Position numbers and translations under genes: made by a program. From a virus (lineage: Duplodnaviria > Caudoviricetes), in the IMG/VR virus record IMGVR_UViG_3300022173_000060, positions 1 to 41,827 of that record: DNA of 41,827 bases; one strand, 5' to 3'. The notes below the pieces were generated by a model, which saw only the letters and a list, made by a program, of their open reading frames with translations, ran no database searches and had not been told where the DNA came from. Below are positions 10,369 through 41,827 of the stretch, piece after piece (position 1 is the stretch's first letter; each line of letters begins with the position of its first letter).

Positions 10369-10637
10369 TCGCCCGACTGTTGAGCAATCAAAGCCGGCAA
10401 TTCGTGAGGAAGAAACTTAATTGAATGCAACACCCCTGCATCATCTGCGTAATCGCACCTGAGCATAGGCATAACCCCCAACATAGGGATAAGCTCTTGA
10501 TGCCCTGTCACAACACAAGTGCGGCCCAGGTAGTTGAATGTTTCCCCAATTTTCCTAAAGCCCTCAATCTTTTCGATAGCGGCATGCCGTAGGTCTTCTA
10601 TCGGCTCTTTTGACTCTTTTTTCTTGAACGGCCACAT
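10356..10637 (-). CDS. hypothetical protein
   Basis: MWPFKK start coupled to the upstream stop. Confidence 0.6.
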   Translation of the reverse strand: MWPFKKKESKEPIEDLRHAAIEKIEGFRKIGETFNYLGRTCVVTGHQELIPMLGVMPMLRCDYADDAGVLHSIKFLPHELPALIAQQSGEWEF

Positions 10638-11071
10638 CAGAATTCCATTTCGACCGAAAAATGCAGCACAGAATCCCTGCGCGTCCCCGGAATCCACCAC
10701 AGCCGCGCCGGCCCGAATTTGACGCTGGGGGCCAGCATCGGCGTCCATTTCTTGCTGGTCATGCCCTCGACCCACACCAGATCGCAGCCGTCGCCTGATT
10801 GCCGGACCTTGCACGCCTGATCCTTGGCGACCATCGGCGTGCGGGTGATGTGATAGCCGCTAACAGCTCCAACTGTGAGGCTAAATGGGGTACCCGGCGC
10901 CTCGAATTGATAGCCCAAGTACACGCTGTTGCGGCGCAAGGTGTTGCGGTATGCGCCGGCCGTCCATCCGTTGTAGATCGCGTACACACCCAAGTTGGTG
11001 TTGTTCTGGCCTTCGATTGCCGGGGCGTGGGCGCTCAGCAAATGCAGACCTAGGATGATTTCATTCATCAT
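10637..11071 (-). CDS. PagP-like outer-membrane beta-barrel protein
   Basis: GLHLLSAH..NNTNLGVY..GAYRNT..SVYLGY..GAVSGY..PMLAPS..LHFSVEMEF: alternating beta strands with a terminal Phe. Confidence 0.55.
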   Translation of the reverse strand: MMNEIILGLHLLSAHAPAIEGQNNTNLGVYAIYNGWTAGAYRNTLRRNSVYLGYQFEAPGTPFSLTVGAVSGYHITRTPMVAKDQACKVRQSGDGCDLVWVEGMTSKKWTPMLAPSVKFGPARLWWIPGTRRDSVLHFSVEMEF

Positions 11072-11291
11072 AGAGGCGCACCATAATCTGCACACAATTA
11101 CCTACAATCGGCCGGATGTCGATGAATTGGGAGTAAAGCACGCCATCCACCAAACATGTTTCCACGCCGCGCACTTCAATGCTTTTGCCGTCTTTCCCGG
11201 GCTTCACTTCAAACATGATTCGCCCATCGCTCGCCACAAAGCTGACGCGATCCTCTTTAATACCAATTTCGAGTTTCATTTCGGCTCCCAC
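11061..11291 (-). CDS. hypothetical protein
   Basis: Overlapping operon ORF. Confidence 0.55.
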   Translation of the reverse strand: MGAEMKLEIGIKEDRVSFVASDGRIMFEVKPGKDGKSIEVRGVETCLVDGVLYSQFIDIRPIVGNCVQIMVRLYDE

Positions 11292-13711: not shown

Positions 13712-13825
13712 TTAGTCTTCGTTGGCCGCGTGACTTCCAACCCTAATAACCCATATCCAGAACGCAGACGCAGCGACAACGCCAATTAACGCGCTTGCGA
13801 TCATCCATAAAACAAAGTCGTGCAT
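13712..13825 (-). CDS. 37-aa single-TM peptide (MHDFVLWMIASALIGVVAASAFWIWVIRVGSHAANED)
   Basis: Manual translation; AGGGGGA RBS lies inside the attC-like site 1 loop. Confidence 0.55.
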   Translation of the reverse strand: MHDFVLWMIASALIGVVAASAFWIWVIRVGSHAANED

Positions 13826-13877
13826 AGCATTCCCCCTATTTGTCTTTTGTGGCTCAAGTCATGCGCGGTTGTTATGT
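13807..13877 (+). repeat. attC-like site 1 (degenerate)
   Basis: AAAAC-AAAGT-CGTGCAT ... ATGCGCG-GTT-GTTATGT inverted arms. Confidence 0.4.
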
Positions 13878-13988
13878 CAACTTCTCGTATACGTGTGTCG
13901 AGCATCCAGCAGAGCAAGCACTGGCGCTGGTTTTGACTGCATACGCTCCCACGGTATCTAGAGCGGTTGGTCCATATGAGAGTTAGGC
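13875..13988 (+). repeat. attC-like site 2 (degenerate)
   Basis: TGTCAACTTCTCGTAT ... ATATGAGAGTTAGGC; the R' box contains the TAA stop of the 13983-14318 gene. Confidence 0.5.
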
Positions 13989-14318
13989 CCCAAGAGCCAC
14001 CGACCATTTCGGGGCCGGCTCCAGCGCGGCAAGAGTCGCGTCAAGCGCTTCTCCTTGCAGCGGCTCCCACCACTGTCCTGTCCAATATTCGACGCGCAGC
14101 CTCGGGTGCGGGTTGCGTAGCTTTTCGAGCGCATGTCGCGCCTCTGCCAACTCCAAAGCCAGCGCTGCCGCAGTTCGCTCTAGCTCCAGTTGGGCGGCCG
14201 GCACTGTGGCGTACAGCGCCAAGGCTCTTTGCCCCTTTGAGGCCAGCGATGGGTCGGCTGTCACGTAGGCGTCTTGGCCGTCGTCGTTCGTAACCATCCA
14301 CGCAATTGGCTCATTCAT
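13983..14318 (-). CDS. hypothetical cassette protein
   Basis: EPIAWMV...LYA motif; stop codon falls in GCCTAAC. Confidence 0.6.
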   Translation of the reverse strand: MNEPIAWMVTNDDGQDAYVTADPSLASKGQRALALYATVPAAQLELERTAAALALELAEARHALEKLRNPHPRLRVEYWTGQWWEPLQGEALDATLAALEPAPKWSVALGA

Positions 14319-14321
14319 GGC

Positions 14322-14393
14322 TCACCCCTCAATCCACCAAATCAGCGCCGGCATCAGCACGAAGCCAAGCAGCGCAAGAAGGTCCGTTTCCAT
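14322..14393 (-). CDS. 23-aa hydrophobic peptide (METDLLALLGFVLMPALIWWIEG)
   Basis: Manual translation; AGGA upstream; abuts the next gene. Confidence 0.35.
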   Translation of the reverse strand: METDLLALLGFVLMPALIWWIEG

Positions 14394-14432
14394 GTGTCAA
14401 GTCCTGCTTGTTGGTTCGCTTCGGATACAGGG

Positions 14433-14533
14433 GCCTAACTGTCGGTTCAAGCGGAGAGCCAACGGCTATCCGCACCTGTGCGCTTCGTCGGCAGCGTCAC
14501 GGCCGTTGTCTCCCGCTTAACCTAGCGTTGGGC
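14433..14533 (+). repeat. attC site 3
   Basis: R'' GCCTAAC, 5-nt spacer, L'' GTTCAAGC (extra C), long stem, L' GCTTAAC, R' GTTGGGC: canonical attC architecture. Confidence 0.85.
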
Positions 14534-14748
14534 GGCTTGCTGTCATCGAAGCCGTGCTCCACAGGCCTCCAGTCGCCGCGATGCTTTTCCTTCATGTCCA
14601 GCGCGCGGAATTCGGCCGTGATCTGCCTGCGGAACTTGCGCGCCGCGTTCACGTCGGCAGTCACGGTCATGTTCACTTGACAGGCCATGTAGAGCCCGGT
14701 GGACTTCCCGTCCTTGGTGAAGTTCTCCACCAGCCACGAGTACGTCAT
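14497..14748 (-). CDS. hypothetical cassette protein
   Basis: C-terminus PPNARLSGRQRP is encoded by attC site 3. Confidence 0.65.
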   Translation of the reverse strand: MTYSWLVENFTKDGKSTGLYMACQVNMTVTADVNAARKFRRQITAEFRALDMKEKHRGDWRPVEHGFDDSKPPNARLSGRQRP

Positions 14749-15011
14749 GAGTAGTCCTCGTCAAAGTTGCACGGCACCGTCCACTGCTTGCCGCAGCGGC
14801 TGCACTCGATGATGTCGTGCTCGTCCACCACGCCGCAGCAGTCAACCGTGCGAGGTTCTGGGCAGCGTTGCAGGTGCTTCTGGCAAAGCTCGGGCTTCTC
14901 GGCATCGTGCAGGCTGCACCCGCCTTTGATCCGGCCACCTTCATAGCGCTTCGGCAAGTGCCGCCCAACTGGTTGGTCAACCGGACTTGCGCCGGCAAGG
15001 GTGTCGTTCAT
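14745..15011 (-). CDS. Cys-rich (Zn-ribbon) cassette protein
   Basis: CSRCGKQW..PCNFD; RBS and ATG lie in the loop of attC site 4. Confidence 0.65.
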   Translation of the reverse strand: MNDTLAGASPVDQPVGRHLPKRYEGGRIKGGCSLHDAEKPELCQKHLQRCPEPRTVDCCGVVDEHDIIECSRCGKQWTVPCNFDEDYS

Positions 15012-15056
15012 CGTTACTCCTTTGTGGGCGCAAGCCGGTTACCGCCGACGTTAGGC
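14963..15056 (+). repeat. attC site 4
   Basis: R'' GCCCAAC, L'' GGTCAACC, L' GGTTACC, R' GTTAGGC; the loop carries stop, AAAGGAG RBS and ATG on the minus strand. Confidence 0.85.
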
Positions 15057-15502
15057 TTCAATGCTCGACGCACACACTCGCTCAACGTGTCGTCGGTGCG
15101 CCCTGGGTGCAAGCCGAACTCCTTAAGCACGAACCACGTCCGCATCAATTCGTCTTCTTGCTTGAAGCTTAGCGCGGCAAAATGCTTAGCTTCAGTCCTC
15201 CAGTGGTTGTAGTGCCTGCCCCATGCCTCGTATCCGATCCACATACCAGCGGCAATGCCTACCCCAATCAGCGCAAGCAACGCCATCAGTTGGCCGTTGT
15301 CCATAACCGTCCTTTCGTTTTCTCCACCAAGCCTAACCAAGCCAATCGAGTCGGACTTTGGCGCCACGGGTTGAACGCGGCACGCGAATTCGGCCTCCGC
15401 ATTTGCATCGCGCTTCATCGCCCAGCGAATCCACAGCCATGTGCAAAGAGCGCTGCCCCAAAAGGTTCCGAAGAACAGTGCAATTTGTTGGTTCGTTGTC
15501 AT
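15014..15502 (-). CDS. two-TM cassette protein (apparent fusion of two small membrane ORFs)
   Basis: Starts MTTNQQ after GGTGGAG; internal duplicated attC arm; ends KPNVGGNRLAPTKE inside attC site 4. Confidence 0.55.
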   Translation of the reverse strand: MTTNQQIALFFGTFWGSALCTWLWIRWAMKRDANAEAEFACRVQPVAPKSDSIGLVRLGGENERTVMDNGQLMALLALIGVGIAAGMWIGYEAWGRHYNHWRTEAKHFAALSFKQEDELMRTWFVLKEFGLHPGRTDDTLSECVRRALKPNVGGNRLAPTKE

Positions 15503-15545
15503 CTCGTTTTCTCCACCAAGCCTAACCAAGCCAATCGAGTCGGAC
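15315..15545 (+). repeat. exact 42-bp direct repeat (15315-15356 and 15504-15545) containing the attC left arm and an RBS
   Basis: TCGTTTTCTCCACCAAGCCTAACCAAGCCAATCGAGTCGGAC occurs twice. Confidence 0.9.
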
Positions 15546-15591
15546 AGTCGCCGGGGTACCGTCGCCTGCCGCTCATTGGCAATCGTTAGCC
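15520..15591 (+). repeat. attC site 5
   Basis: R'' GCCTAAC; GCCAATcGAGtCGGaCAG pairs with CTGCCGCTCATTGGC leaving extrahelical bases; R' GTTAGCC. Confidence 0.75.
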
Positions 15592-15625
15592 GGCGCCAAT
15601 ACACTCAGCGCCGGCATTGGCTCAG

Positions 15626-15988
15626 TTACGCGGCCACCACGACAGGCGCGTGCGCCAGCGCATGTACCACGCCGCGGAAGATGAAGTCCTTCGCCTGCTG
15701 CTCCACCGGCAGCGCGTCAAACGGCACGATGCAGTGGTGCTGCTTCAGGTCGGGCCGCTTCTCGGGGCCGTAGGTCCAGCCATCGGCCACCTTCTGCGCC
15801 ATCCAGCTTTCGTGGCTGGCCGAGGCACTGGCGCCAGGGTTCTCGGTGTGCAGCTTCACGCCCAGCAGGGCCGAGTCACGCTGCCACTGCGGCGCGTCTT
15901 CCCACGCGGGCTGGCTGTTGTCGCCCAGCGCCTGGCAATAGGCGCGGTTCACTTCATGTGCCACGCGGGCAATTTGTTCAGGGTTCAT
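15626..15988 (-). CDS. RyR-domain protein
   Basis: HESWMAQKVADGWTYGPEK....KQHHCIVPFDALPVEQQAKD, the RyR domain signature. Confidence 0.85.
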   Translation of the reverse strand: MNPEQIARVAHEVNRAYCQALGDNSQPAWEDAPQWQRDSALLGVKLHTENPGASASASHESWMAQKVADGWTYGPEKRPDLKQHHCIVPFDALPVEQQAKDFIFRGVVHALAHAPVVVAA

Positions 15989-16022
15989 GCTTTCTCCTGT
16001 TTGCGGGCAGTGGTCGGGCGCC

Positions 16023-16079
16023 CGCTAACCCGTCTATGCACCGGACTGCCTTCGGCAGCCGGTGATATCTGCGTTGGGC
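16023..16079 (+). repeat. attC site 6
   Basis: R'' CGCTAAC, L'' TATGCACC, CTGCC-TTC-GGCAG hairpin, L' GGTGATA, R' GTTGGGC; 57 bp. Confidence 0.85.
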
Positions 16080-16273
16080 GGCTCGTCGAGTGCCGGGTCG
16101 CTTTCAATGTAGGCCGCCATTTCGCGCAGCGCCAACACCAAGCCCGCTCGCGTGAATGGGCGAGCGACACGAAATGCATAGTGCCTATCGTTGCTAAAGT
16201 CCGCGCGAATTTCCAACAAATCATGCCGCAGTCGTTGATCGTCAACCCATAGCTTCGTCAGTGTGTGCGCCAT
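16034..16273 (-). CDS. hypothetical cassette protein
   Basis: C-terminus PPNADITGCRRQSGA is encoded by attC site 6. Confidence 0.6.
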   Translation of the reverse strand: MAHTLTKLWVDDQRLRHDLLEIRADFSNDRHYAFRVARPFTRAGLVLALREMAAYIESDPALDEPPNADITGCRRQSGA

Positions 16274-16302
16274 CGCTAAATCCTTTCAATTTTCAAACAG
16301 CC

Positions 16303-16399
16303 GCCCAACCCCGCCGCCGAGCGGAGGGCCGCCGGCAGGCAGTGGTTCGATTTTCGTTGCGTCGGTCATGGCGTCTACCGCTCACGGCTATCGTTAGGC
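16303..16399 (+). repeat. attC site 7
   Basis: R'' GCCCAAC, CCGAGCGG ... CCGCTCACGG, R' GTTAGGC containing the TAA stop of the upstream minus-strand gene. Confidence 0.75.
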
Positions 16400-16651
16400 T
16401 TCAAATGTTGCAGCATCGTTGTGCCACCCTCGCGCAATTCGATATACCTCTGGAGCAGTCAACGCGCCTCTTTCAGCCAGCACCGCAATTAGCCTTCCGA
16501 TTGCTTCAGAGCACTGGTTTGCGACCATCTGCGCGTTGTCGGAAATGTCGCTATCAAGTCCACCGCCGCGCGAAAGAACTCCATCAACCCACGTTGACAC
16601 TTCGCCGCCACCGTCGTTTGGACGGCCTTTGTAGTTGGGTAGTATTTGCAT
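16394..16651 (-). CDS. hypothetical cassette protein
   Basis: GGAGAG RBS; stop codon falls in GCCTAAC. Confidence 0.6.
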   Translation of the reverse strand: MQILPNYKGRPNDGGGEVSTWVDGVLSRGGGLDSDISDNAQMVANQCSEAIGRLIAVLAERGALTAPEVYRIARGWHNDAATFEA

Positions 16652-16751
16652 TTTCGTTCTCTCCGTTCACCAGCCTAACCATCGGAGTCGGTTTGTTTTC
16701 CATGTCTCCATGATCTGTATTTTGCTTATGCTGGCCCATAGGTGTTTGTAC

Positions 16752-17108
16752 CTAGGCAACCCGCCTTATCGCTGACTTTGCCTTGCTCAGCATTGCGGCT
16801 ACCTCGGCCCGGCGCTCGGGCGTCGATTCTTCTGGCGTTTGGCTTGCCAAGTATTCCAGGGTCTTTTCAGCGGCGCTGCTGGCCCTGTAACTGATCTCTG
16901 CCGGCTTCGGTTCATAGAAGTCCAGCCAGTGCCCGTTTGTCGCTGCGTCGATCCAGGCGTTCGGGTCGTGGCCGGCGTCTTTGACCTTTTGCAGCAGGGC
17001 CAGCTTCTGGCGGACTATGCGAGGGGTCATTGGCTTTTTGATGCGACGGCGCATGGCTTCGTAGTCGGACCAGGCCTCGGGGTCTATGTAGACTGGGAGT
17101 GGTGTCAT
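16752..17108 (-). CDS. replication-initiator C-terminal-domain-like protein
   Basis: LPVYIDPEAWSDYEAMRRRIKKPMT...G.DP...ID....NGHW.D.Y resembles the C-terminal domain of phage O-like replication proteins. Confidence 0.6.
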   Translation of the reverse strand: MTPLPVYIDPEAWSDYEAMRRRIKKPMTPRIVRQKLALLQKVKDAGHDPNAWIDAATNGHWLDFYEPKPAEISYRASSAAEKTLEYLASQTPEESTPERRAEVAAMLSKAKSAIRRVA

Positions 17109-19723: not shown

Positions 19724-19963
19724 ATGGTCTACTTCACTCTTTCCAACCGCCCGCCTTGCGCGCTCTATCGCAAGCTCACCACGGTCGAGCTTGGGTTTGT
19801 CAATGAGCCCTTCATTGTCGATACGCAAGAGGGCTTCATGACAATCAGCCCCTCGACCGTCGATGACTGGGAAGACGGCTACTACATCGCCTACCCGAGC
19901 GACGGCAGCAAGCCCTATTCAATCGCGCCGAAGTATGTGCGGGACAACTACGAGCTGGCATAA
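19724..19963 (+). CDS. PGDYG/'TLEG'-like small phage protein
   Basis: YRK...IVDTQEGFM...DGYYIA...PY.I......NYE resembles the I.TLEG.M...GDYII..YP...F..TYE family. Confidence 0.6.
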   Translation: MVYFTLSNRPPCALYRKLTTVELGFVNEPFIVDTQEGFMTISPSTVDDWEDGYYIAYPSDGSKPYSIAPKYVRDNYELA

Positions 19964-24027: not shown

Positions 24028-24195
24028 TCATTGGTGGGAGTCAATGTCGAATGCGGGGCCTTAAGCCTTCGCTTTCCAGGGCCGCTACGGCGGACGTGTG
24101 CTGAAAAGCGCATCGGCTCCCACCCTGGAGAGCAAGGACTTAAGGCCCTTTTTCTTTGTGCGTCCGGTCGCGCAGTGACGGACGAGTCAATGCCC
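24028..24195 (+). ncRNA. C4/CI-like antisense RNA / attenuator, right arm
   Basis: Stem 24056-24081/24123-24148 followed by a T run; CATCGGCTCCCACC (24111-24124) complements leader GGTGGGAGTCAATG (24033-24046); GAGTCAATG recurs at ~24184. Confidence 0.6.
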
Positions 24196-40244: not shown

Positions 40245-41216
40245 TCAAGGGGTTAAATTGTCGACTTTCCCGTTGCTGGCCTCGGCGTCAACCACCAAGC
40301 AGCCTTCAGCGAAGACCATTTCTTTGTCGGTGTGGCCCGTCTTTGCCAACGGAACCGACTGGAACGGCTGAAGCCAGGCCATCGCCAAGGTGTCTGGATT
40401 CAGAATCCACGCCACATCGTTTGCGCTGGTCGCCTGCACGTAGTTCGGAACCACGGTCAATTCACCGAAGTCCGACATATACACATCAGCGCCTCCGATG
40501 ATTCGGCCCTGCTCGCCATTCTTCACCTGATAACGGTTCACCGCGATACCCGCGAAGCCTGAGAACGTGCCCTTGTGGGCCGGCGTCAAGCTGATCAGCG
40601 CCGGGAACTCGCCGGAGTTGGTGTAGATCGACTGCAACACCGTTTTCGTCAGCGCCTCCGTGAATGCCCGGTTCGTGCCGGCCGTGTTCGCCGTGGTCGG
40701 TGCACCCGAGGTATGGGCCGCAGTCGCGCCGGCGCCGCCGTGCGACACGTTGGTATAGATCATCACGCCCAGACCACCGGATTTGCGTGCCGTGGTCGAG
40801 TTGCCGAGAACCGCCGCGTTCTTGCTGGTGATCATCGCTTCGCAGTCGCGCTTCAGTTCGGTGAACTTCTTCGCCACCTGATACTTCATCTCATCCGACC
40901 GGCCGGCCAAATCCGACTTCTTCTGCGTGCTCGAAACAACAGCCACCGCATCGAAAAGCTGCGTGGTATTGGCAACCCGCTGGGTAGCGGTCAGCGCCGT
41001 CCCAGTGCGGTCGTCGCCTTCGATAGCCGCGTTGTCCTTGTTCGGCGTCGCAAGTGAGTCACGCTGCCATTCGTGGAGCTTTTGCCCGGCCTTCAGGCGC
41101 TTGATTTGGGAAAGGATCGGCGTCTTTTCGGGGGACACCATGTAAATCTTGTCTTGCAGGTCCTCGCGCGTACCGATTGAATCGTACGCGTCGAAGGTAT
41201 TTGCTGGCTGAGCCAT
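40245..41216 (-). CDS. major capsid protein (DUF5309/SU10-like)
   Basis: G.REDL.D.IY.VSP.KTP...HEWQ.DSL...N.TQ.F...KY..KK..ELKRD.E...DVY.SDFG...LAKTG. Confidence 0.92.
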   Translation of the reverse strand: MAQPANTFDAYDSIGTREDLQDKIYMVSPEKTPILSQIKRLKAGQKLHEWQRDSLATPNKDNAAIEGDDRTGTALTATQRVANTTQLFDAVAVVSSTQKKSDLAGRSDEMKYQVAKKFTELKRDCEAMITSKNAAVLGNSTTARKSGGLGVMIYTNVSHGGAGATAAHTSGAPTTANTAGTNRAFTEALTKTVLQSIYTNSGEFPALISLTPAHKGTFSGFAGIAVNRYQVKNGEQGRIIGGADVYMSDFGELTVVPNYVQATSANDVAWILNPDTLAMAWLQPFQSVPLAKTGHTDKEMVFAEGCLVVDAEASNGKVDNLTP

Positions 41217-41827
41217 TTAGTCGCCTCTTCATAGCAAGCGAGCCAAGTCATCGATTCGTCCAGATTTCTGGAGCCGTTGAACTGCCTCGCGGTTTGTGTG
41301 CTTCGGCTGCGGCGCGGCAGGCTTGATGATCCTCGGCGCGGCGGCAACCTTTTTAAGCGCAGCGGGCTTGTCGGACTGAAGTTTGTCAAACTGGATCGCC
41401 TTGTGGGCCAGCAGGAGGACTTGCCCCAGTGTGCCGGGGTGCATTCCTGCTCTAGCGAGGGCGTGCGCAGCGGTTTTCAGGTCCGCGCGGCTCCAGCCTA
41501 TCGACTTCTGTACGTCTGAGAGCAGTTGTTCCGTCCTCGCACCATCGAAGTTCGGAATGTTCTTGCTCAGAATCTCATCGGATTGTCGAAAGACTTGATC
41601 CACGAGTCCGGCAATCTGCTGCTCTTGCGCCTGCTGATGTTGGGCCTTCTGGTGCTCAAGTGCTTGCCAGGTCTGGTTTACCTGCTGCTGCCGGGCCTGA
41701 AGTTGGACAAACTTCGCCGGGTCTTGAACGCTGAGAGATACCCAATCCACCCCGTTGAGTTCGGGGGCCGCCTGGCTTAGTACCAGTTCCTGGAGCTGGT
41801 TGATTCTCTCAACCGCTTGGGATTGCT
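41192..41827. repeat. terminal direct repeat (circular overlap), copy 2
   Basis: Matches 1-636; implies a unit genome of 41191 bp. Confidence 0.95.
41229..41827 (-). CDS. scaffolding protein, partial duplicate (variant allele)
   Basis: Same frame as the 3' part of 38-973, with three K/R substitutions. Confidence 0.8.
   Translation of the reverse strand, partial: QSQAVERINQLQELVLSQAAPELNGVDWVSLSVQDPAKFVQLQARQQQVNQTWQALEHQKAQHQQAQEQQIAGLVDQVFRQSDEILSKNIPNFDGARTEQLLSDVQKSIGWSRADLKTAAHALARAGMHPGTLGQVLLLAHKAIQFDKLQSDKPAALKKVAAAPRIIKPAAPQPKHTNREAVQRLQKSGRIDDLARLL

Follow-up and report, generated by a model that had tools for sequence, protein, structure and literature searches.

The window analysed here is the whole of IMG/VR virus record IMGVR_UViG_3300022173_000060 (Duplodnaviria; Caudoviricetes; 41,827 nt, positions 1 to 41,827), and it carries an array of integron-type gene cassettes in reversed polarity, with every gene on the attC recombination sites' bottom strand. 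We consider it probable that an integron integrase (IntI) exchanges these cassettes at the AA|C of the coding strand (G|TT on the top strand), and that genes reading through this crossover do so in a frame that places Asn there (the Asn frame) and take their C-terminal tail from the neighbouring site. The polarity, the G|TT cassette boundaries, the locked entry frame, the variable tails, the ribosome binding sites (RBSs) with ATG codons in site loops, and relatives carrying attI and IntI are all apparent when the sequences are compared; from this anatomy and pattern of exchange we infer recombination and translation. The array is a real new variant of the integron system; phage clusters of attC sites lacking integrases (CALINs) have already been published, as the parts of PMC9892861 drawn on here describe.

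attC sites and reversed polarity of the array

A covariance model (CM) derived from 47 attC sites that came from other viral contigs and phages gave exactly five window matches below an E value of 1e-6, each of them minus-strand and scoring 38-64 bits; opposite-strand echoes of these five aside, the next-best match elsewhere in the window had E 0.4. With the plus strand as top strand, the sites are B (14433-14533; 101 nt; 60.2 bits), C (14963-15056; 94 nt; 63.6 bits), D (15520-15591; 72 nt; 38.5 bits), E (16023-16079; 57 nt; 46.0 bits) and F (16303-16399; 97 nt; 47.1 bits). A rule-based attC detector found three of the five (B, C and E), with no matches in six shuffles at the threshold used. 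Bottom-strand folding gave z scores of -3.26, -3.06, -5.80, -3.42 and -1.39 respectively, four of the five being at or below -3 and far past shuffles; in site F, the exception, the recombinogenic fold is not the minimum-energy one (forced, -18.7 versus -23.0 kcal/mol). The invariant AAC/GTT is present in all five (RYYYAAC inverse core, GTTRRRY core), the inverse core of site E being otherwise off-consensus, as are L boxes whose extra bases fall on the plus-strand R'' arm; B, C and E pass the detector, and D and F were read from the CM alignment and the sequence. Over the 47 homologous sites 96% of cells were paired (27-45% in a slid control) and 10 of 15 pairs had changed on both sides, a result that leans positive because these sites had been chosen by a pairing rule.

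An attC site reads RYYYAAC...GTTRRRY on both strands. As this motif reads alike both ways, the plus strand was assigned as the top strand because the extra bases, which mark the R'' arm of the attC top strand according to passages of PMC5027507, sit on its R'' arm. The consensus of the minus-strand (coding) sites resembles the aadA7 bottom strand printed in the portion of the PMC9892861 supplement consulted. Every array gene lies on the minus strand, which bears out the claim of an earlier reading of this DNA (the original prediction) that all open reading frames (ORFs) are on the attC bottom strand; the gene finder called no top-strand gene in the array, which differs in this from a classical cassette, where the ORF is top-strand and ends at or before its own attC. 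With five attC sites and no intI nearby the array is a CALIN by definition; compared with a complete integron, it has neither an intI beside it nor top-strand genes driven from Pc, its genes being bottom-strand.

The left end of the array is an attI-like simple site (13970..13988, plus strand) with a degenerate L box, a 5-nt spacer and a GTTAGGC core, and with its predicted crossover after G13982. This core forms no hairpin (z +0.26), which suits an attI-like simple site rather than an attC. Simple sites of this kind end many other arrays and, in relatives, adjoin intI, lying just upstream of it; 13970-13988 differs from the exact motif found beside the phage intI in 11 of 18 loci, though it is like the end sites of other arrays. 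At the right end, an R''-only remnant resembling the left arm of site D (16673..16692, plus strand; z -1.15; no CM match) lies beside an O-like replication gene. A second remnant, with R'' and L'' arms only (15331..15356, plus strand), falls within a 48-nt repeat of the site D flank (direct repeat D11, 96%) and is likely a deletion scar. Two further candidates for attC status, 13785-13876 and 13875-13988, were rejected (z about 0, no CM match), as was a group IIC-attC intron, an element that also lies antisense to attC: the Rfam search gave no match and there was no reverse transcriptase among the 83 and 30 ORFs scanned.

To compare polarity, one seed pattern was used for viral contigs and bacterial genomes, with sites taken by rule and genes called by means of a codon model, self-trained, which finds most genes of the window again; the pattern favours one attC family, and the counts describe arrays of that family. 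Beyond R' the gene was bottom-strand at 172 of 207 unique viral sites, top-strand at two and uncalled at 33, i.e. 172 of 174 called. The 180 bacterial sites from the same seed gave 61 top-strand, nine bottom-strand and 110 uncalled (nine of 70 called being bottom-strand), and rescoring the bacterial sites with the viral model gave 58, seven and 115. The two viral top-strand calls (L039 and L094, single and low-scoring) are counted here and excluded from later statistics; the reversed sites of bacterial assemblies L139, L145, L146, L153 and L208 are in the bacterial count and out of the bacterial site control for start signals. One viral array (L009, L036, L040, L050, L052) has attC both ways round, its called genes still being bottom-strand, and was excluded from the comparison of cassette linkage. 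The reversed cassettes seen in bacterial genome assemblies at L153, L145/L146 and L139 are possibly prophage pieces and could point to beta- or gammaproteobacterial hosts. A separate bacterial array (L107/L158/L159) shows many seed matches every 296 nt, a spacing that suggests tandemly amplified cassettes.

Entry frame, C-terminal tails and start signals at the crossover

At 261 pooled sites, 94 genes stop on the core TAA, 72 stop before the core, 58 read through and 37 are uncalled; most genes thus stop in or before the core (94 + 72 of 224). All 58 genes that read through AA|C, from 48 of 48 families, do so in the Asn frame. The share expected from phage codon usage is 0.61-0.66 per gene, giving log10 p -9.5, so that codon usage alone was rejected as the cause of the entry frame and the frame bias foreseen across attC cores was found. 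A caller-free test of open, well-scoring frames through the crossover returned 49, 0 and 0. Bacterial top-strand genes reading into their own R'' split 6:3:1 between frames (Fisher p 8e-4 versus 42:0), and this split against the phage lock places the frame lock where the tail depends on the neighbour.

The original prediction held that genes either stop exactly in the core or read into it in one conserved frame. In the window the TAA stops at 13983 and 16394 do lie in the core, and the Pro-Asn read-throughs at 14497, 15014 and 16034 each end inside the site; the RyR-domain gene 15626-15988 departs from this and stops 35 nt before the core. The single frame holds for all read-throughs, but genes that stop in the core use another one. 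As a separate observation, the core imposes a C-terminal Ala (GCC TAA) on most core-stopping proteins and several attC-encoded tails end in small residues; that such ends have a role in protein turnover is a guess.

The cassette 2 gene at 14497-14748 has 116 homologues, 106 of which retain a recognisable C-terminal anchor; the junction is kept in 94 of the 106, and is then followed by 87 distinct tails with a median of 13 residues. At the DNA level, 13 of 17 loci of this gene diverge right after AAC into 11 different sites, and the other four diverge earlier and lack the junction. In the converse case, unrelated upstream genes share the same or a near-identical site C tail (L250, L251 and L258). 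The predicted swapping of protein tails is thus seen between homologues, and the variety of tails is likely the product of integrase-driven reshuffling.

Start signals were assessed in distinct sites of at least 80 nt. A Shine-Dalgarno sequence with ATG was present on the bottom strand of 41 of 94 phage sites and four of 50 bacterial sites (p 5e-6), and on the top strand of none of the 94 phage sites. The first Asn-frame stop forms an RTGA overlap in 38 of 94 phage versus four of 50 bacterial sites (p 4e-5); loop ATGA motifs have their TGA in the Asn frame in 36 of 67 cases (p 7e-4), and for 30 of the 40 internal starts the first Asn-frame stop is placed at -7..+11 nt from the start. In the window, the predicted AAAGGAG-ATG loop signal is present as AAAGGAG-N5-ATG in site C, where it would start the gene at 15011; here the Asn-frame stop (15016-15014) is followed by the ATG after 2 nt. 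A second signal, AGGGGGA-ATG, which the original prediction put in an attC loop, is in no attC: it lies near 13830, outside the array, where folding does not surpass that of shuffles (z -0.02) and the CM has no match.

Not every gene is served by such signals. Among bottom-strand genes on the R'' side, 134 of 175 start outside the site, mostly 15-35 nt beyond it and often behind an RBS-like sequence, which speaks against a universal coupling design. The proposal that the sites are plug-and-play junctions coupling translation in any cassette order has support from the loop start signals of long sites, which are coupled to the Asn-frame stop; as a universal rule it is overstated, given these outside starts and the genes that stop in or before the core. 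A count of 33:2:1 between frames for starts placed just before the core was not used, being forced by geometry, and extended outer stem arms could also explain their spacing.

Cassette exchange, integrase and alternative explanations

Comparison across contigs points to a mobile unit that begins at G|TT and extends as far as the G of the attC belonging to it. In 13 pairs a gene and its own site were shared while the right neighbour was new, and in no pair was a site shared together with its right neighbour; in 11 of 12 pairs the sequences diverged no more than 1-5 nt from G|TT. Cassettes 1 and 2 of the window occur intact in other contexts, cassette 1 beginning at exactly 13982 in another phage contig. 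Contig pieces from all of eight runs also start at 13982, with other attC arms joined in front in four; no excised-circle joints were listed in contigs from the eight runs, contigs being a form of data that drops rare forms.

Integrases were sought in 50 of 59 array-bearing viral records, most of them fragments (a full-length recombinase in L235 was judged by eye); two of the 50 encode an IntI above the TIGR02249 cut-off, and the related loci with an IntI above it are L234, L239, L248 and L259. At two loci carrying the cassette 2 gene of the window, of which L248 is one, this cassette stands first at the simple site and is followed by IntI, which aligns over its length with VchIntIA (2A3V, E 1e-74). 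A search with this IntI gave 18 viral loci at identities of at least 43%, some redundant, of which 12 have upstream attC sites and 11 share one attI motif. At these loci 26 of 28 unique attC sites have bottom-strand genes and two are uncalled. Because attI and reversed genes accompany IntI there, phages do have complete reversed integrons, in which transcription reaches intI after the cassettes, and we take the window phage to be an integrase-less member of the group that would need IntI in trans. In L270 (993-1260), L271, L279, L280 and L285 the phage attI, upstream of intI, gives a conserved short Asn-frame tail; some 16-27 nt separate its end from the intI match, a hint of translational linkage between intI and the last cassette.

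In the mechanism we propose, IntI supplied by the host or a co-infecting phage would fold and cut the bottom strand, and cassettes would be inserted at the attI-like end, which would be the promoter-distal end of the operon. The mRNA would bear the bottom-strand hairpin, and selection would keep ribosomes moving through it: entry would be in the Asn frame and termination in the loop, with a new start at an ATG that is close by or overlaps the stop, and genes behind short sites would depend on their own RBS. According to PMC5371416, recombination is higher for bottom strands that lie on the lagging-strand template, an arrangement that most chromosomal arrays avoid. Reversal would put the recombinogenic strand on that template if replication runs with transcription, and could thus speed the turnover of accessory genes, for example DNA methyltransferases; if phage genes run with replication, it would bring phage-operon expression and high turnover together. 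GC skew in the window tracks gene strand and was useless for replication direction.

Several observations weigh against integrase-driven exchange with frame-locked coupling. IntI exceeded the TIGR02249 cut-off in only two of the 50 records, and the window genome itself has no tyrosine recombinase, PF00589 having no match anywhere in it. Read-through genes number only 58 of 224, the gene starts rest on the simple codon-model caller, and the sites labelled D-truncated, F and G are degraded. The conserved Val frame in which ORFs were said to leave the sites did not hold: 40 called starts inside sites exit as 23 Val, 17 Leu-Gly (as in the site D mini-ORF) and none in the third frame. The exit frame, however, need not be conserved, because the start side of a gene moves together with the attC of that gene. 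For overlapping starts placed immediately ahead of the core, no clear excess over background was seen (22/33 versus 137/266), and many of the N-terminal 'heads' may be leaders rather than true N-termini. Finally, the same gene occurs with different attC bodies in 22 pairs and the same attC body with different genes on both sides in 175 pairs, changes that exchange at R' alone does not explain.

These body changes bear on a tentative alternative, in which both attC cores are exchange points in an integron lineage belonging to phages, with its own IntI and attI. Exchange at R' would reorder genes and swap C-terminal tails, and exchange at R'' would give a gene a whole new attC body, bringing another RBS, start codon and N-terminal head. 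Support comes from 16 same-gene/different-site pairs, of which five change site precisely behind the R'' AAC and eight no more than 6 nt away, and from loose ends at 14439 that lead into other attC bodies in two runs; the absence of pairs sharing a site and its right neighbour, the type such events should leave at first, counts against it. If true, phages would be a workshop where genes gain attC sites, and expression level and protein ends would be retuned by recombination.

Half of the same pairs (8/16) diverge deep in the site, at position 34 or later, a pattern that also favours the sites being homology linkers for the phage ERF-type annealing protein, with IntI-free swaps at short homologies and hairpins kept as translation elements. 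The window does encode an ERF-family protein (PF04404; 20594-21253, plus strand, in an integrase-free plus-strand block at about 19.7-26 kb) and no integrase, and cassette 3 is a deletion-type scar. We nevertheless find this explanation unlikely, as junctions on the R' side lie 1-5 nt at most from G|TT, a place at which sites that are unrelated have no more than about 7 nt in common, the stems covary and retain their extra bases, and the same cassettes are paired with attI and IntI in relatives.

We think it quite doubtful that survivorship alone accounts for the array, i.e. that attC elements land at GTT motifs in phage accessory operons and only insertions at or near gene ends survive, with the Asn frame following from core consensus and GC-rich codon usage and the loop RBSs from a purine skew of the bottom strand. 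Such a skew is general, according to passages of PMC5027507, IntI inserts at many genomic attG sites (bioRxiv 10.1101/2022.09.11.507474, in part), and in phage genes such motifs stand in the Asn frame more often than in any other, at 61-66%. The 48 of 48 families far exceed that share, however; bacterial attC bottom strands carry the start signal at four of 50 sites only, gene-plus-site units move whole between phages, attI is conserved beside intI, and random landing would not yield a polarity of 172:2. That ordinary bacterial cassettes were captured from a host integron, their antisense ORFs being chance or secondary, can hardly be right: phages do take host integron segments (PMC9892861, in part) and the seed pattern is common in bacterial arrays, but conserved homologues of the ORFs are present both in phage records and in viral contigs, same-seed bacterial arrays are top-strand, the window array is devoid of called top-strand genes, and no window cassette was seen with top-strand genes in bacterial integrons.

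Array genes, related systems and genomic setting

All array genes are on the minus strand. Cassette 1 holds a gene for a 111 aa protein of unknown function (13983..14318; TAA stop in the core) and a small hydrophobic ORF of 23 aa (14322..14393) that ends 3 nt short of the next ATG and was missed by the gene finder; 13982-14455 is 96% identical in another phage contig (L032/L047). Copies of site B at 94-99% occur in seven other loci with different left neighbours and, in addition, in L046 with the same left gene. Cassette 2 comprises the 83 aa gene at 14497..14748, with Pro-Asn across the crossover and a tail from the site B bottom strand, and an 88 aa gene (14745..15011) with its predicted RBS and ATG in the site C loop, a Val exit frame and a stop overlapping the next ATG; this pair recurs with site C in L248, L251 and L258.

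Cassette 3 (15014..15502, 162 aa) is a truncated gene fused in frame to a 96 aa gene (15014-15304) that reads through Pro-Asn into site C. The 96 aa gene has six homologues, with the Pro-Asn junction in one, and the first gene is in L008 a separate cassette with a different, longer C-terminus; on these comparisons cassette 3 is a scar of array instability, an in-frame fusion across an attC remnant. Site D would link the RyR gene to the next gene by a two-step chain of predicted mini-ORFs: one of 14 codons (15573..15617) starts 9 nt past the RyR gene stop and crosses the core in the Asn frame, and one of 25 codons within the site (15499..15576) has ATGA overlaps at its start and at its end (with gene 15502) and a Leu-Gly exit.

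Cassette 4 encodes a 120 aa RyR-domain protein (15626..15988; PF02026, E 4.9e-10; phrog_5154) with its own predicted RBS. The 79 aa gene of cassette 5 (16034..16273) reads through Pro-Asn, has its tail and stop inside site E and shows distant relatives only, with no close homologue; that of cassette 6 (16394..16651, 85 aa) has its TAA stop in the site F core, and the gene finder missed both. The mini-ORF expected to start at an ATG inside a site was found in site F (16286..16369, predicted, 27 codons); it exits in the Val frame and ends 12 nt before gene 16273.

Classical cassettes, as described in parts of PMC5027507, share with the phage array the R''-L''...L'-R' anatomy, the extra bases of the R'' arm, the G|TT boundary and, in top-strand view, a gene linked to the site on its right. 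Unlike them, the phage genes are bottom-strand, the site precedes the gene and the crossover falls at the gene 3' end. The statement in that source that promoter-facing cassettes have never been observed refers to inversion of whole cassettes, whereas in the phage array the gene is reversed within the cassette. Integrase-free attC clusters in phage genomes, with five of six tested sites recombined with IntI1, were reported by Qi et al. (2023, PMC9892861); the text excerpted describes them as typical-structure arrays or captured host segments and makes no mention of genes being reversed systematically, of a frame lock, of tails or of an IntI lineage in phages, its figures and annotation file lying outside that excerpt. 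A full-text literature search, with most subscription journals outside its reach, found no description of systematic reversal, frame lock or tail exchange.

In the 'reverse' integron of Treponema denticola, intI and cassette genes run in one direction, as in the IntI-bearing phage relatives; there it is intI that is flipped, whereas in the phage relatives it is the genes, intI being divergent from the attC top strand as usual. Class 1 integrons have ORF-11 in attI1 and short ORFs in attC, and attC hairpins block ribosomes, a block that the short ORFs in the site relieve by termination-reinitiation (PMC8876359, and Jacquier 2009 as cited there). That coupling is on the top strand and known case by case, whereas the phage pattern is on the bottom strand and statistical over many sites, and places the crossover inside coding sequence so that protein tails change. 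The fused blaGES-1/aacA4 cassettes with partial attC loss (PMC8876359, in part) are like the in-frame fusion of cassette 3 over its attC remnant, which differs in its reversed polarity and unknown cargo.

A Pfam scan of the 100 longest of 176 array cargo proteins matched 15, among them eight DNA methyltransferases, one Lar and a GmrSD-like domain; these are compatible with counter-defence roles, the cargo being mostly unknown. Chromosomal integron cassettes hold anti-phage genes (10.1101/2024.07.02.601686, in part). Integrons are seen as bacterial devices with cassettes facing one way, and phages appear to use the same chemistry in mirror image for accessory genes, which in the relatives include methyltransferases and a restriction-alleviation protein; most such phages appear integrase-free and would borrow an integrase. 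A crossover within coding sequence would be a natural case of recombination that keeps genes translatable while altering their tails, and the recurrent re-pairing of genes and attC bodies offers a handle on the way in which a cassette acquires its attC. A number of the strange ends of annotated phage proteins, and a large one, would then be translations of attC.

The array lies directly downstream of the O-like replication gene (16752-17108), inside a long minus-strand gene run of a phage record of 41.8 kb with a completeness rating of 100%, whose genes include portal, terminase, head, ejection and lysis functions. Portal-gene relatives had no arrays in the stretches examined, blastn against isolated phages matched the RyR gene only, and a promoter and terminator scan gave a promoter result at chance level. 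Two long inverted repeats outside the array (19781-19860 and 24056-24148) have no match to the attC CM. At 10637-11095 (minus strand) the gene resembles, weakly, a family of PagP-like lipid A acylation proteins (phrog_3600, E 9e-8), and the Pfam search gave no match for it. The window ends (1-300 and 41192-41491) overlap at 96% identity within the scaffolding gene, so that the record looks circularly permuted, with slightly divergent ends.

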